NCBI GenBank assembly: GCA_002780715.1
Contig: PEUO01000148.1
Location: 1-50,863, forward strand
DNA length: 50,863 bases
Direction: 5' to 3'
Source: Deltaproteobacteria bacterium CG03_land_8_20_14_0_80_45_14
GTDB taxonomy: Bacteria > Desulfobacterota > BSN033 > UBA1163
A program made the position numbers and the translations under genes. The notes under the pieces are model-generated. The model did not search any database, was not told the origin of the DNA, and saw nothing but the letters and a program-made list of their open reading frames with translations. Every line of letters starts with the position of its first letter. The stretch's first letter is position 1. Below, in pieces: positions 32,818 through 38,246 of this stretch.

Positions 32818-33639
32818 ATGAACAAGTTGATTATCACCGTTGGGATTACAGGTTCTCGAATTACACGACAACAAACGCCTTATATCCCAATTACTCCACA
32901 AGAGATTGCGCAGTCTGGGATTGAGGCGTGGAGGGGAGGGGCTTCCGTCCTTCATATCCATGTGAGAGATCCCAAGACAGGCCTGGGGACTCAAGAACTT
33001 TCTCTCTTCAAAGAAGTGGTGGACCGTATTCGGAGTGAAACCGATGCTATCCTCTGCCTGACAACGAGCGGCATTCCGGGTAGGAATCTCGAGTTTCAAG
33101 AAAGGCTTGTCCCTTTATGCCTAAATCCAGAATTGGTCTCCTTTGATGCAGGGACGATTAATATGAGGGAGAATGTTTTTCTCAATCCCCCTGAGTTTTT
33201 GGAGCTATTGGCCAAAGAGACACTGGCAAAGGGAATCAAGCCTGAGCTCGAGGTCTTTGAGGTCGGAATGGCTCAAACCTGTATCCGGTATTTGGAGAAG
33301 GGCCTCCTTAAACCTCCGCTTCACTTCCAATTCGTTTTGGGCATCGTCGGCGGCATGCCTGCCACGGCAAAGTCACTGCTTTATCTTTCGGAAATTATCC
33401 CCGAAGGCTCTACTTGGTCTGTGATTGGGATTGGTCCGGGACAGCTCTCCATGACCGTGATGGGAATGGTAATGGGTGGGCATGTACGAGTAGGGCTGGA
33501 AGACAATATCTACTACTCGAAGGGTGTCCTGGCTAAGACCAATGCCCAGTTGGTCGAAAGAGTAGTCAGGATTGTAAAAGAGTTCGGAAGAGATATCGCC
33601 ACCCCGCAGGAATCCAGAAAAATCCTAAATTTGAAATAA
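32818..33639 (+). CDS. kce: Beta-keto acid cleavage enzyme (BKACE/DUF849; 3-keto-5-aminohexanoate cleavage enzyme-like)
   Basis: 273 aa. MNKLIITVGITGS...TPQEIAQSGIEAWRGGASVLHIHVRDPKTG is the BKACE N-terminal signature. Confidence 0.85.
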   Translation: MNKLIITVGITGSRITRQQTPYIPITPQEIAQSGIEAWRGGASVLHIHVRDPKTGLGTQELSLFKEVVDRIRSETDAILCLTTSGIPGRNLEFQERLVPLCLNPELVSFDAGTINMRENVFLNPPEFLELLAKETLAKGIKPELEVFEVGMAQTCIRYLEKGLLKPPLHFQFVLGIVGGMPATAKSLLYLSEIIPEGSTWSVIGIGPGQLSMTVMGMVMGGHVRVGLEDNIYYSKGVLAKTNAQLVERVVRIVKEFGRDIATPQESRKILNLK

Positions 33640-33692
33640 CTCTGGGAACCTATCAAAACCTTTCTTCCCGCCACTTTTGTTTCGAAATCAGT

Positions 33693-33720
33693 TTGACACT
33701 TATCCAAATTTGTATATAAT
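33693..33720 (+). promoter_or_regulatory. Near-consensus sigma70 promoter
   Basis: TTGACA (33693-33698), a 16-nt spacer, then TATAAT (33715-33720). Confidence 0.65.
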
Positions 33721-33805
33721 GTTCTACAAGAGTTGGTAATTGGACTCATAATCCTTTAATGGTGAGGAAAGGAAATGACAAGCCCTGATCATCCAACAAA
33801 GTCGG

Positions 33806-33867
33806 GCCCTTATAGGTCCAACGTACCTGCGGTAGGCAGGGAAGTATTGGACTATGAGGGCTTTTTT
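33806..33867 (+). terminator. Intrinsic terminator / structured RNA 3' end (copy A)
   Basis: GCCCTTATAG[G]TCC pairs with GGACTATGAGGGC (13 bp, one bulge). An inner CCTGC-GGTAG-GCAGG hairpin follows, then T6. Confidence 0.65.
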
Positions 33868-33967
33868 ATTGCCTGGCCTAAACCCGAACCCAGTGGAAAT
33901 AGGAAATGTCCCTATATTTACTCAAACATTTATTGTTGCTTTAAGGTTTGTGTGATATATTGAAAGT

Positions 33968-34399
33968 ATGAAAGTAGATAGGGAGAGAATCGGGAAATAC
34001 GCTTTTGAAAAAGGGATAAAGTTTATTATTCTTTTCGGATCTCAAGCTGTGGGGGATAGACATGAAAATAGCGATTTCGATGTGGCAGTTTTGACCACAA
34101 GAGAAAAAAATCTCTCCGTCCTTAAAAATTATAGCGAAATATTAGATTTTCTTTCGAATATACTGGGTATCCCTGATTACAGAATAGACCTTACCAATCT
34201 TAATAAGGCTAATCCTTTTTTAAAATACGAAGTCGTTTCTTCGGGGAAATTGCTTTACGGGGATGAGGATGAATATGCCGATTACAGGGCGGGTGCATTT
34301 AAAGACTACATCGATTCGCAGCCTCTCTTCCATCTTGAAAAATATCTGATTAAGAAGCGTCAGAATCTATTAGGAGAACTTTTAGCCCACCAGAAATGA
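33968..34399 (+). CDS. mntA: Minimal nucleotidyltransferase antitoxin (MNT/MntA-like)
   Basis: 143 aa. GSQAVGDRHENSDFDVAV fits the GS-x10-DxD NTase motif. ATGA overlap with the downstream HEPN gene. Confidence 0.85.
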   Translation: MKVDRERIGKYAFEKGIKFIILFGSQAVGDRHENSDFDVAVLTTREKNLSVLKNYSEILDFLSNILGIPDYRIDLTNLNKANPFLKYEVVSSGKLLYGDEDEYADYRAGAFKDYIDSQPLFHLEKYLIKKRQNLLGELLAHQK

Positions 34400-34842
34400 T
34401 CAGGGAAATTTTTGTATTAAGAAAAATAACCCTTATTCAGGATGAGCTGACTAAACTGGCAGATCTGGCAAAGTATTCCCTTAAAGAGGTTACCAGCGAC
34501 TTTGTAAAGCAGGCAGCCTTGGAGCGATATCTGGAGAGAATCATCAACCGCGCTATTGATATTAATCAGCATTTGATTGCAGAACTGGCGACAAAAGACA
34601 CAAGCCCACCGCTTGATTATACGGAAACATTCTTAAGGCTTGCTGACCTTGGCATCTATCCGTCAGATTTCTCAAAACGCATAGCTAAGAGTGTGAGAAC
34701 GAGAAATATTCTTATTCATGAATATAATACTGTAGATTATAGCAGCGTTTATTCTTCGATCTCTGATTGCCTGAGAGATTATCACGAGTACTGTAGTTAT
34801 ATTCTAACATTCCTGGAGCAATACAAAAGCAGGGTGGCATAA
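34396..34842 (+). CDS. hepT: HepT-like HEPN (DUF86) RNase toxin
   Basis: 148 aa. RTRNILIHEY fits the R-x4-6-H HEPN motif. Confidence 0.85.
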   Translation: MIREIFVLRKITLIQDELTKLADLAKYSLKEVTSDFVKQAALERYLERIINRAIDINQHLIAELATKDTSPPLDYTETFLRLADLGIYPSDFSKRIAKSVRTRNILIHEYNTVDYSSVYSSISDCLRDYHEYCSYILTFLEQYKSRVA

Positions 34843-34928
34843 AAGAGATCGTGTTGGAGGAGGGAGCCATATAACCTTTTAACCTTAGGGAGAAACAATG
34901 GTCATCCTTGGCCATTACATCAAAACAA

Positions 34929-34989
34929 GCCCTCATGGATCTAAGCTGCCTGGAGTAGGCAGGGGAATTTTAGACTGTGAGGGTTTTTT
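34929..34989 (+). terminator. Intrinsic terminator / structured RNA 3' end (copy B)
   Basis: GCCCTCATGG[A]TCT pairs with AGACTGTGAGGGT (13 bp, bulge at the same position). An inner CCTGG-AGTAG-GCAGG hairpin follows, then T5. Confidence 0.65.
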
Positions 34990-35046
34990 ATTATTCGGCT
35001 TGACCCTGAATCCTAAGAGAAAATAGGGAGGTGTCCTTAAAATTTA

Positions 35047-36582
35047 TTGGGGGATAAATCTATAAAACGATTTTACTTTTCAAGCCTTCGCAGCCGGTTA
35101 ATCCTCATCATTCTTTTAACCCTCTTTCCAATATTCTTATTGATTCTTTACAATTTTTACGAACAGCGACGATTAGCGTTCAGGGAAATTCAGACTAATA
35201 CTCTCCATCTCACCCAGTTTGCTGTCAAACATCAGGGGCAACTGATCGAAGGAACGCGCCATCTACTCATCGCCCTTTTGAAGCTATCTCAGATACGTCA
35301 AACCGATTCCATTGGCTGTTCTTCTCTCTTCGCTGAAATACGGAAGGAATATCCCCACTACGGTAGTATCGGAGCCTCTAAACCGAATGGTGATATGTTC
35401 TGCAGTGGTTACCCCATGATAAGGCCCGTTAACTCCTCTGAACAGGTGTGGTTTCAAGATACGATTCGAACACAAAATTTTTCAGTGGGAGTCTATCAGA
35501 TCAGCCGCATCAGAGACAAACCTGTTATTGTTTTTGGTTATCCTGTCATTGATGAAACTGGAAAAATCAAGGCTTTGGTCTGGGCGGGGATGGATTTAGC
35601 CTGGTTGAACCAAAGCATTGCAAAAATAGATTTGCCAGAAGGAGCAACGCTTGTTGTTTTTGATCGAGACGGCACAATCCTTGCTCGTAGACCTGATCCG
35701 GAGAAATGGGTCGGGCAATCCATACAAAAAGTGTCCTACTTTAAGACCATATTGGATAAAGGAAGAGGGACGGTGGAAGCGCCGGGTGTGGACGGCATCA
35801 AACGTCTCTACGCATTCACTACATTAGAGGGTTTGCCTGAGGGCAGCCTTTACGTGAAAGTGGGTATCCCCACCCAGAGGGCCTATGCTTATATAGGAAA
35901 AGCTCTGATGAGAAATTTGACTCTGTTGGGTTTAATAGGCGTTCTTTCACTGGCGGTTTCCTGGTTTATAAGTACTTTTACTATTTTAAAACCCGTAAGC
36001 GCATTGATTGAAGCATCAAGAAGAATGGCAGCGGGTGATCTGGGTAGCCGGGCAGGATTATCTCATCATAAAGGTGAAATTGGTCAATTGGCACAAGTTT
36101 TTAACGAGATGGGCGAATCCCTCCAGAAGCAGGAGAATAACCGCAAGCGGGCAGAGGAGGCGCTGCGGGAGAGCGGGCGGCAATGGAGCAGGACCTTTGA
36201 CGCAATCAATGATTCCGTCTGACTGATCGATCCGGACGGGCGGCTTCTCAAACACAATCAAGCTACTCAGCGCCTGTTGGGCAAAGCTGCCAGCGAGTTG
36301 AACGGCCATTTCTGCTTCGAGGTAGTGCATGGTTCCTCGCAACCCATTGCGGGTTGCCCGATCGTACGAATGAAAGAAACAAACCGCAGGGAAAGCACCA
36401 TCATCCAATTGGGCGACCAGTGGCTACAGGTCACAGTGGACCCTATCCTGAACGATGACCAGCAATTGGAGGGCGCTGTCCACATTATCGCGGACATCAC
36501 CGAGCGCAAGCGGGCAGAGGAGAGGATTTTTAGACTCAATCGGCTCTATACTTCTTCTTTGAAAAGGAGGGAAGTATTATGA
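35047..36582 (+). pseudogene. Membrane sensor (periplasmic Cache-like domain, HAMP, PAS) with an in-frame TGA and no kinase core
   Basis: ORFs 35047-36222 and 36277-36582 are in the same frame. The TGA at 36220-36222 sits inside the PAS N-cap (FDAINDSV*LIDPDGRLL). The protein ends ..RLNRLY+10 aa without HisKA/HATPase. Confidence 0.7.
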
Positions 36583-37211
36583 TCAAGATCCTGATAGCGG
36601 ATGATCATCCGATTGTGAGGCAGGGGTTGAAACAGATCCTGTCAGAGGAGTTTGAAATAGAAGCCTTAGGCGAGGCTCAAAATTCCTAGGAAGTCCTTGA
36701 TCTTGTCCGGAAGAAGGATTGGGACATTCTTGTGCTGGACATCACCATGCCCGGGAGAAATGGACTGGATGTGTTAAAAGAATTAAAACAACAACGCCCA
36801 AAACTTCCCGTCCTGATTTTAAGCATGCATCCTGAAGACCAGTATGCTGTTCGAGCTTTAAAAGCAGGGGCATCTGGTTATCTGACCAAAGGGAGTGTGG
36901 AGGAAAAATTGGTCAAGGCGATCAAAAAGATCCTCGCCGGGGGGAAATATGTGAGTTCCTTGTTAGCCGAAAAAATGGCATTCGATTTGGAGCAGAAAAC
37001 AGAAAAGCCCTTGCATGAGACCCTCTCTGATCGTGAATACCAGGTGATGCTCCTGATTGGATCAGGGAAGACAGTGAGCCAGATCGCTGAAGAATTGTCC
37101 TTGAGCGTCAAGACGATCGACACCTACCGAACCCGCATTCTCGAAAAAATGAAGATGAAGACGAACGCCGAACTGATGAAGTACGCGATAAGGAATAAAT
37201 TGATTGATTAA
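36579..37211 (+). pseudogene. NarL/FixJ-type response regulator (REC plus LuxR HTH) with an in-frame TAG
   Basis: MIKILIADDHPIVRQGLKQILSEEFEIEALGEAQNS*EVLDLV.. The TAG is at 36687-36689, in the same frame as ORF 36732-37211. The ATG overlaps the sensor stop (ATGA). Confidence 0.7.
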
Positions 37212-37327: not shown

Positions 37328-37624
37328 ATGCCGATGAAAAGAGTTCCTTCAAGATTCCAACCCTTTTTGTGGTCAAAGAGTATCGAGAAAATAGAAAGGG
37401 ATAAGGATAAGATCTATATTATCCACCAGATTTTAAGTTATGGGGATTTAAAGGAATTAAGACTTTTATTCCAAATCTATGATAGAAAAGAGATAAGAAA
37501 TGTGTTTTTAAGATTTCCCAAAAAAATTTATCAGCCATCGGTTTTCTTTTTTGTAAAGAATCATATCCTTGGCCTAAAAAACAAAAGATTGAGAGAAAGA
37601 AACTATGTCAAAACTCTTTTTTAA
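37328..37624 (+). CDS. Small protein upstream of the AbiEii-like gene (putative cognate antitoxin)
   Basis: 98 aa. AAGGAAGAG SD. Overlaps the downstream NTase gene by 20 nt. No recognisable AbiEi-type winged HTH. Confidence 0.6.
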   Translation: MPMKRVPSRFQPFLWSKSIEKIERDKDKIYIIHQILSYGDLKELRLLFQIYDRKEIRNVFLRFPKKIYQPSVFFFVKNHILGLKNKRLRERNYVKTLF

Positions 37625-38246
37625 TATTTTAACGGAAGAGCAGAAAAGGACATTTGAATCTTTAAGGGTCTTTTCAAGATATGGATGCTTGGGGGGTGGG
37701 ACTGCATTAGCTCTTCAGTTCACCCATCGAAAATCTTATGATTTTGATATTCTTTGCCCTACGGCTATTTCCAGAGGATTGCTCCTTACCGCTAAAAACC
37801 ATTTTAAAAAAATCCAGATTTTGGTTGATACGTCAGATGAGTTAACTCTTGTCACTCCAATTGGGGTAAAGGTGAGTTTTGTCTTTTATCCCTTTAAACC
37901 TCTTTATAAAACGATTGAAACTGCACCATTAGATGTTCTTAATTGGAAAGATATCGCCTTGGATAAGGCCTATACCATTGGTCGAAGGGGTGAATGGCGT
38001 GACTATGTAGATCTTTATTTCTCTTTAAAGAAAGGGTTTTCTTTGAAAGGGATAATTAAAGGAGGAATGAAGAAGTTTGGAAATCTTTTTTCTGAGAAAC
38101 TTTTTCTGAGTCAACTTTGTTATCTTGGAGATATTAAAGATTATTCCATCGACATCGTAAAAGAAAACGTAACCCCTCAACAACTCAAAGGTTTTTTTGA
38201 AAGAGAGATAAAAATTCAAATCGCAAATCACAAATTGCAAATTTAA
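37605..38246 (+). CDS. Nucleotidyltransferase AbiEii/AbiGii-family toxin-like protein (DUF1814), short form
   Basis: 213 aa. LGGGTALALQFTHRKSYDFDI matches the GGTAL..HR.S.D.D NTase signature of AbiEii. Confidence 0.75.
   Translation: MSKLFFNILTEEQKRTFESLRVFSRYGCLGGGTALALQFTHRKSYDFDILCPTAISRGLLLTAKNHFKKIQILVDTSDELTLVTPIGVKVSFVFYPFKPLYKTIETAPLDVLNWKDIALDKAYTIGRRGEWRDYVDLYFSLKKGFSLKGIIKGGMKKFGNLFSEKLFLSQLCYLGDIKDYSIDIVKENVTPQQLKGFFEREIKIQIANHKLQI

Follow-up and report, generated by a model that had tools for sequence, protein, structure and literature searches.

The 50,863-nucleotide (nt) contig PEUO01000148.1 of Deltaproteobacteria bacterium CG03_land_8_20_14_0_80_45_14 (assembly GCA_002780715.1), hereafter the window, carries two related intergenic units, A and B, which bracket a MntA-HepT toxin-antitoxin (TA) cassette and lie upstream of a gene for a Cache-HAMP-PAS sensor. 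Sequence comparison identifies both units as diverged copies of a ~220-bp module found in a clade of Thermodesulfobacteriota (Syntrophales-like). The parts of this module are a consensus sigma-70 promoter (carried by 40 of 70 copies), a 5' leader of ~75 nt that includes a Shine-Dalgarno (SD)-like sequence and an ATG, a strong intrinsic terminator with a U6 tract, and a ~50-nt 3' extension. With moderate confidence, we read the module as a multi-copy, cis-acting promoter-leader-attenuator for sensor genes. The features of the two units and of the sensor gene are as follows.

33693-33720, + strand: sigma-70-type promoter of unit A, with the -35 hexamer TTGACA at 33693-33698, a 16-nt spacer and the -10 hexamer TATAAT at 33715-33720.
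33727-33867, + strand: predicted ~140-nt leader RNA of unit A, spanning the predicted start through the T-run.
33761-33777, + strand: SD-like sequence GGTGAGGAAAGG and the ATG (33775-33777) of the small open reading frame (ORF), both conserved in the family.
33775-33963, + strand: small ORF of 62 codons that continues past the terminator, with no conservation of the peptide as a protein.
33804-33867, + strand: intrinsic terminator hairpin A, consisting of stem, bulge, apical hairpin and T6.
33868-33913, + strand: 3' extension of unit A past the terminator, ATTGCC..GGAAATGTCCCT, conserved across copies.
34843-35038, + strand: unit B, promoterless and of another subfamily, with leader, hairpin, T6 and 3' extension.
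35047-36582, + strand: Cache-HAMP-PAS sensor gene, start codon TTG at 35047, the gene that unit B would serve.

An earlier, sequence-only reading of the window had described a consensus promoter with a ~140-nt leader and terminator, and these are present as described, with coordinates slightly refined. The promoter of unit A scores 12/12 against the consensus and has a predicted start at ~33726-33728; it lies 53 nt, rather than the 54 first counted, from the kce stop (33639). The hairpin, given earlier as a 13-bp bulged stem (33806-33819/33849-33861), is better drawn as a lower stem of 12 bp (33804-33815/33852-33863), a bulged G33816, an upper stem of 5 bp (TCCAA/TTGGA, 33817-33821/33847-33851) and an apical CCTGC/GCAGG (33826-33830/33836-33840), with the T6 at 33862-33867; folded alone, it has a predicted energy of -33.4 kcal/mol. 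For the hairpin core pattern, 0 chance matches are expected. The second copy after hepT has an SD-like sequence at 34887-34892, an ATG at 34898, a hairpin at 34927-34985 with A34939 bulged at the same position as in A, a T6 at 34984-34989 and a 3' extension to 35038. Both the shared bulge and the compensatory change from C-G to T-A that had been reported are there, C33819-G33849 in A corresponding to T34942-A34972 in B. Also borne out was the restriction of the promoter to copy A, the sequence upstream of unit B being the coding end of hepT. Similarity beyond the hairpin, estimated earlier at about two-thirds, comes to 69% over ~190 nt in a MAFFT alignment, and the part that is significant by blastn joins 33806-33903 to 34929-35027 (72% over 100 nt, E 3e-8). 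A hidden Markov model (HMM) of the family, run with nhmmer, matches unit A at 33729-33871 (E 4e-40) and unit B at 34841-34992 (E 2e-33). One boundary did not hold: copy B had been said to end exactly at the sensor start codon, and homology stops at ~35038, 9 nt before the TTG. No third copy was found within the 50.9-kb window by pattern, blastn or nhmmer.

The hairpin core, written as the pattern AAAAAAGCCCTCAYN{12,42}GANCNATRAR, served to scan genomes and metagenomes; this pattern fixes the lower stem and the T-run and does not include the promoter hexamers, and matches were confirmed by nhmmer with the family HMM. Species-representative genomes yielded 9 true homologous loci in metagenome-assembled genomes (MAGs), all labelled Syntrophaceae, Thermodesulfobacteriota or delta proteobacterium, and metagenomes yielded at least 118 pattern loci, with more than 80 true among the matches listed. 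At least 70 non-redundant copies (<97% identical) are found among the matches listed, and the family statistics that follow (sets of 70, 58, 54 and 43) rest on these. Several contigs bear 2-3 copies of the module, with three within 3 kb on one of them (L144; handles of this kind denote contigs and loci of relatives). In promoter-bearing copies, homology extends from ~10 nt 5' of the -35 hexamer through leader and terminator and often ~52 nt past the T-run, and this ~52-nt 3' extension is common to many copies ahead of unrelated genes. One copy (L159, ~1300-1435) has a ~45-nt insertion within the leader ORF region, 3' of the ATG-proximal part and 5' of the terminator. The whole unit recurs at dozens of other loci. 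The comparison with Rfam that had been proposed gave no family matching the unit: at gathering thresholds the window yields a tRNA alone, and 33600-35100 searched at E<=10 yields two chance miRNA matches. The tRNA gene, at 2406-2479 on the minus strand, is the sole Rfam match above gathering threshold in the window. No true unit copies were found in the plasmids and viral contigs searched, and the literature searched held nothing pertinent on a Syntrophales repeat or leader of this kind or on repeat-flanked TA cassettes. The window locus itself is also present, at 99.7% identity or more, on 18 groundwater-metagenome contigs and one NCBI MAG contig (GCA_002783725.1), and these near-identical sequences of the same population offer no basis for comparison; when sensor orthologues were sought beyond this population, the next best match was just 46% identical.

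Evidence for selection on the promoter comes from its own columns in the family alignment. Diversity is 0.008 in the -35 hexamer and 0.10 in the -10 hexamer, compared with 0.45 in the spacer and 0.32-0.38 in the flanks, and the spacer is 16 nt long in 33 copies. Because the hexamers lay outside the search pattern, this is unbiased evidence that the promoter is functional and its hexamers are under purifying selection, as judged from substitution patterns. The promoter is absent from 30 of the 70 non-redundant copies, which keep leader and terminator. Within the leader, the ATG column of promoter-bearing copies has a diversity of 0.0-0.1 and the SD-like stretch is conserved; the positions of AATCCTTT and GCCCT rank with the least variable of the leader. 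The hairpin has a mean energy of -27 kcal/mol in the family, and 92% of its cells are paired across the family, compared with 30-53% when the partners are slid. Two pairs covary: pair 153/183, equivalent to C33819-G33849 and T34942-A34972, is CG in 25 sequences, UA in 21 and UG in 5, and pair 160/174 is CG in 28 and UA in 7. In ~20 copies the apical hairpin is swapped for a short loop, 18 nt shorter.

Fifty-four copies have a long ORF (at least 100 aa) no more than 1 kb downstream, and all but one of them (53) are co-oriented with it; the distance from a unit to the following start codon is 20-300 nt. A PAS domain is present in 24 of the 43 distinct downstream proteins, other downstream sensors have Cache, Tll0287-like, MASE3, MEDS or GAF domains, and the remaining downstream genes encode antitoxins (MntA, MazE, RHH, Phd) or AAA ATPases. 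A leader or attenuator of the sensor gene had been one of the options offered from the sequence, and it gains from these counts, as the module, promoter included, precedes PAS/Cache genes at many loci. The G+C-rich hairpin and U-tract expected of an attenuator are present, as is its position between a promoter and a co-oriented gene. Promoterless copies follow co-oriented genes (unit B in the window; units 2 and 3 of L144). In L144 the order is promoter-bearing unit, MazE/PIN, promoterless unit, MASE3-PAS sensor, unit, PAS histidine kinase and LuxR-type regulator; L202, which also has kce and is TA-less, reads kce, GIY-YIG gene, promoter-bearing unit, PAS gene.

Many of the PAS proteins encoded after units end in a conserved Cys/His motif, LPICxSCKKIRDDKGYW...HGICPxCxxKLYP, and have no kinase domain (L110, L117, L142, L144 2919-4301, L177 and L202 9862-10203). 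From its sequence, this C-terminus looks like a recurring, uncharacterised output module.

The anatomy of the unit suggests how such an attenuator would operate. The promoter would fire and most transcripts would stop at the terminator, giving a ~140-nt RNA, so that the sensor gene would be expressed only by read-through of the terminator, that is, by attenuation. Promoterless copies would act in this way on transcripts coming from the gene before them; unit B, for example, would terminate the transcript arriving from hepT and meter read-through into the sensor gene. Among possible controls of read-through, translation of the small leader ORF is the most plausible. Ribosomes that follow closely behind RNA polymerase suppress intrinsic terminators, and the terminator of pyrBI lies inside its leader-peptide gene (PMC4824070). 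In the module, the ATG is present in 49 of 58 aligned copies, and the ORF runs past the T-run in 46, ends inside the hairpin in 9 and ends before it in 3. With SD and ATG conserved and 55 of 58 ORFs entering or crossing the hairpin, a following ribosome would prevent the hairpin from forming. Under this scheme a ribosome translating the leader ORF behind RNA polymerase would control read-through, and the peptide would be irrelevant; if the leader ORF matters, it would be the act of translation rather than the product that counts. Control of read-through by leader-ORF translation, as in pyrBI, is a tentative proposal by analogy, with clearly less than an even chance of being right. More speculative still, and in our judgement unlikely, is a translation-coupled attenuator that gates PAS/Cache sensors and lodged TA cassettes by translational status, with the RNAs also acting in trans via AAUCCUUU.

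Several observations weigh against the module as a regulated leader of sensor genes. The N-terminus MKDQYKTKKQL... recurs in many of the downstream PAS genes, and co-duplication therefore accounts for part of the association with sensors; much of the sequence conservation may be recent common ancestry of the copies. The invariance of the lower stem and T-run is partly ascertainment and says little, as both were fixed by the search pattern. The leader ORF has frameshifts or early stops in 11 of 58 copies, including an orthologue of unit A (L127_6369) in which it stops at codon 6, and ~7 one-step-to-stop mutations in the ORF are too few for statistics on stop avoidance. No conserved antiterminator or 5' structure was found: RNAalifold on the family recovers the lower stem only, pairing of the terminator 5' arm with upstream sequence averages 9.26 nt compared with 9.19 nt in shuffles, and two hand-picked 5' helices, GGGGCU/AGCCCU and CCUUU/AAAGG, are both weak candidates. 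With no conserved structure beyond the terminator, nothing points to a riboswitch-like aptamer or to an antiterminator of the classical kind.

The cassette between the two units, which bears on how they came to lie where they do, comprises the following features.

33933-33967, + strand: promoter region of the TA cassette's own, TTGTTG-17-TGaTATATT, outside the repeat unit.
33968-34399, + strand: MntA, antitoxin (NCBIfam NF047752, E 1e-23).
34396-34842, + strand: HepT, toxin (NCBIfam NF047751, E 1e-27).

Together, MntA and HepT, which have Pfam assignments as well, form a type VII TA cassette lodged between units A and B. The mntA ATG is just 6 nt past the -10 element of the cassette promoter, so the mRNA is probably leaderless. 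Homologues of MntA range from 99% down to 35% identity, and the ~40 nt that precede the mntA ATG, the cassette's own promoter, stay with the cassette in other genomic settings (L020, L024, L027). In L024 (83%) and L027 (70%) the cassette stands in unrelated contexts, upstream conservation is limited to these ~40 nt, and there is no unit on either side. The syntenic contigs L020-L023 (82%; MAG labelled Syntrophaceae) have unit B and a remnant of the sensor N-terminus after hepT; L020 has no unit A, and a gene for a transposase of the repetitive extragenic palindrome (REP)-associated tyrosine class occupies its place. In L029 and L112 the unit A promoter has given way to another, distinct transposase gene of this class. 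The two transposases of this spacer are a 229-aa protein whose gene is flanked by an 18-bp inverted repeat, AATTGGGGACGGGTTCAC, and the 313-aa protein encoded where the unit A promoter is replaced; in relatives the spacer also holds a GIY-YIG nuclease gene. Insertions between kce and the TA or sensor genes are found at L020 3190-3960, L029 1812-2753 and L202 7750-8040. The cassette thus travels without the units, and the kce-sensor spacer is an insertion hot spot.

The units themselves have closer relatives elsewhere than each other. Unit A shares 89% identity with L177 and L089, which stand elsewhere ahead of PAS genes, compared with 62% for unit B in the same alignment. For unit B the identity is 84-85% with L112_2834, L156 and L151, of which L151 has the promoter and precedes a PAS gene. 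The two units thus represent different subfamilies and not a local duplication. Copies are also mosaics: the 5' part of L127_7493 (L127 7341-7545) is 99% identical to L029_4025 and L128_1206, and its hairpin and 3' part match L217_1073 and L215_233 at 96-100% identity, with the breakpoint near the leader ATG. Direct repeats bracket the TA cassette in L029, L030, L112, L127 and L128 as well. In L144 (1679-2025), unit 1 is followed by a 20-codon remnant of an MKDQ-type PAS gene (MKDQNKTKQKLIEELEGLRK*), behind which lies the MazE-PIN cassette with its own promoter; TA cassettes at this locus have displaced sensor genes. Homologous recombination between copies is the likely way in which cassettes come to lie between units, and the copies may serve as portable homology for TA cassettes. 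On this account the TA cassette would be a passenger with its own promoter, lodged between two copies of the module, and recombination among copies, not duplication at insertion, would explain the bracketing.

Other explanations for the units differ in what they would make of the small ORFs and of the transcript. The two ORFs that had been noted at 33775-33963 (62 aa) and 34898-35026 (42 aa) do exist, an SD and an ATG precede or open them, the frame is open in most copies, and gene callers annotate it on many contigs, all of which would suit a conserved small protein or a peptide resembling a type I toxin. Against this, diversity by codon position is flat (0.344/0.339/0.344), the ratio of nonsynonymous to synonymous polymorphism (pN/pS) is 0.92, lengths range from 5 to 67 codons with variable C-termini, frames are broken by shifts and early stops, and an intrinsic terminator sits inside the ORF. 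A profile search of 5.8 billion proteins returned 55 called clusters only, all hypothetical and with no Pfam domain. The motif TSP..VGRxxLDxEGF shared by the two peptides might suggest a conserved protein; with no codon periodicity and this pN/pS, it reflects nucleotide conservation. Annotated genes of 40-60 aa on the units almost certainly encode no protein, and we give a conserved peptide hardly any credence. A stand-alone, trans-acting small RNA (sRNA) gene of ~120-140 nt, acting on other mRNAs, for example via the nearly invariant stretch AAUCCUUU, which is complementary to SD-like sequences, would leave the adjacency to sensors incidental or co-duplicated. It would account for a self-contained unit with a selected consensus promoter and a strong terminator, and for the low variability of AATCCTTT and GCCCT in the leader. 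Terminated riboswitch leaders can act in trans, as do SreA and SreB of Listeria, which also speaks for such a role. It fits poorly with the co-orientation of 53 of 54 copies with the downstream gene at distances of 20-300 nt from its start codon, with the 30 of 70 copies that lack the promoter yet keep leader and terminator, and with a terminator that is the only conserved structure. As a full explanation the sRNA gene seems improbable to us; it is compatible with the cis-acting leader and not exclusive of it.

To a similar degree improbable is a selfish or passive repeat, a putative mobile promoter or an element like a miniature inverted-repeat transposable element (MITE), with no regulatory role beyond promoter and terminator. 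Units 80-89% identical stand before MntA, MazE, RHH, Phd, AAA ATPase and various sensor genes, substitution is near-neutral over most of the unit, the copies are mosaics, genes for REP-associated tyrosine transposases and REP-like repeats adjoin several copies, and the concept of mobile promoters is documented (PMC3575422). The units nevertheless have no terminal inverted repeats longer than 5 bp (GACAC/GTGTC), no target-site duplications and no copies on plasmids or viral contigs, and the AATTGGGGACGGGTTCAC repeats that flank the transposase gene are unrelated to them; the strong enrichment before sensors, the strict co-orientation and the selective maintenance of hexamers, ATG and hairpin also argue for more than passive spread. 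The sequence-only reading had offered two further accounts, that the repeat was duplicated when the TA cassette inserted or that it is a dedicated boundary site used to mobilise TA cassettes, in the manner of integron attC. Bracketing recurs in the five contigs named above, a different TA pair (MazE-PIN) is bracketed in L144, and the bulged base and variable apex are superficially attC-like. Duplication upon insertion is contradicted by the subfamily membership of A and B, each closer to copies elsewhere (89% and 84-85%) than to the other (62%), and by L020, which has the TA genes and unit B with no unit A. A boundary element fares no better: homologous MntA-HepT cassettes lack units in L024 and L027, most units have no TA genes, and the junctions vary (hepT/unit B at ~+1, PIN/unit 2 in L144 at ~+25), so there is no site-specific cassette boundary. 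The genes called within +/-10 kb include no integrase domain, the base of the hairpin reads GGGCYCTYAT/ATGAGGGC and not RYYYAAC/GTTRRRY, and the conserved T-run after the hairpin is typical of terminators. We regard both accounts as very unlikely, and the promoter-leader-attenuator for sensor genes as the best description of the module.

Some further observations concern the genes downstream of the units. At 36220-36222 the sensor gene of the window reads TGA, a stop, in place of the TGC found in the near-identical contig L030; the intact sensor of L030 is 511 aa long, and the TGA splits the protein into 391 and 101 aa. Other contigs of the same population have different truncations (283 aa), and the sensor gene therefore appears to be decaying or polymorphic. 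The gene for a LuxR/GerE-type response regulator that follows has an in-frame TAG at 36687-36689 (..GEAQNS*EVLDLVRKKDWDILVLD..) in both the window and L030, and its orthologue in L020 is an intact 194-aa protein; the window gene is either a pseudogene or read through. Just 3' of it, at 37328-38246, lies a second TA-like pair (DUF6922 and AbiEii-like), with no unit adjoining. REP-like sequences, GTAATGAACGTCCCGTTAT and CAACCCCGTCCCCAGG, recur ~100-250 nt past the T-runs of many units (L116, L128, L182 and others) and resemble the repeats that flank the transposase gene in L020.

These results describe a new family of a known type, a terminator-containing 5' leader or reused promoter module, with as yet no evidence for a new mechanism. 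Taken as a candidate cis-regulatory family, it comprises at least 70 distinct copies and combines a selected promoter with a conserved terminator; Rfam has no match for it, no comparable element appeared in the literature searched, and its hosts, Syntrophales-like bacteria, are uncultivated and little studied. Should read-through be regulated, one post-initiation control point would be common to many sensor genes of a genome. The family is also a natural example of promoter-leader reuse before unrelated genes, with recombination mosaics among the copies, and it indicates that direct repeats bracketing a TA cassette need not mark cassette mobilisation.

Three classes of element were considered for the unit and rejected: MITEs, as only the 5-bp GACAC/GTGTC is present at the unit ends, the flanks differ and no duplications were seen there; REP/REPIN, which are palindromes of 20-40 nt in inverted orientation around the transposase gene, as the unit is ~220 bp and directional, and the L020 transposase is flanked by the unrelated 18-bp AATTGGGGACGGGTTCAC; and attC, as the hairpin base has no RYYYAAC/GTTRRRY and the called genes within +/-10 kb include no integrase domain.

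Among known systems, pyrBI of E. coli is similar in having a promoter, a short leader ORF with SD and ATG, and a terminator inside the ORF just before the gene. Unlike pyrBI, the module has no U-rich pause tract (the pre-hairpin sequence is CCAACAAAATTGGGC), stands before sensor or TA genes with no pyrimidine link, occurs at dozens of loci per clade and has its reading frame broken in about a fifth of copies; coupling is proposed here by analogy. The c-di-GMP riboswitches of Geobacter are multi-copy leaders upstream of signalling genes, and the module resembles them in its many terminator-containing 5' leader copies per genome before functionally related genes in deltaproteobacteria-like hosts; it differs in showing no aptamer-like structure or antiterminator, in being conserved in sequence rather than structure, and in having no Rfam match. 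Putative mobile promoters have been defined by at least 80% identity over at least 50 nt before non-homologous genes (Matus-Garcia, Nijveen, van Passel 2012; PMC3575422); they are shared between genomes, lie mostly outside Rfam and spread by an unknown route (PMC3575422). The units show identity of this order, A (before mntA) being 89% identical to L177/L089 (before PAS) and B 84-85% to L151 and L112_2834. In contrast to mobile promoters, the module is a whole promoter, leader, terminator and 3' extension, is strongly biased to sensors and has measurable selection on hexamers and hairpin. Correia, ERIC, REP, BIME and REPIN elements are likewise repeats scattered between genes, form long hairpins and can provide promoters or terminators, and genes for REP-associated tyrosine transposases lie near units in some relatives; the module, however, has no terminal inverted repeats or target duplications, is far longer than REP and is strictly co-oriented with the gene that follows. 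Integron attC sites and cassette arrays share with it direct repeats with an imperfect, bulged hairpin and variable apex, set between small cassettes that include TA pairs. The module differs from them in having no R''/R' core sites or integrase and in its variable junctions, and it carries instead a promoter and a T-run terminator, with most copies flanking ordinary sensor genes.

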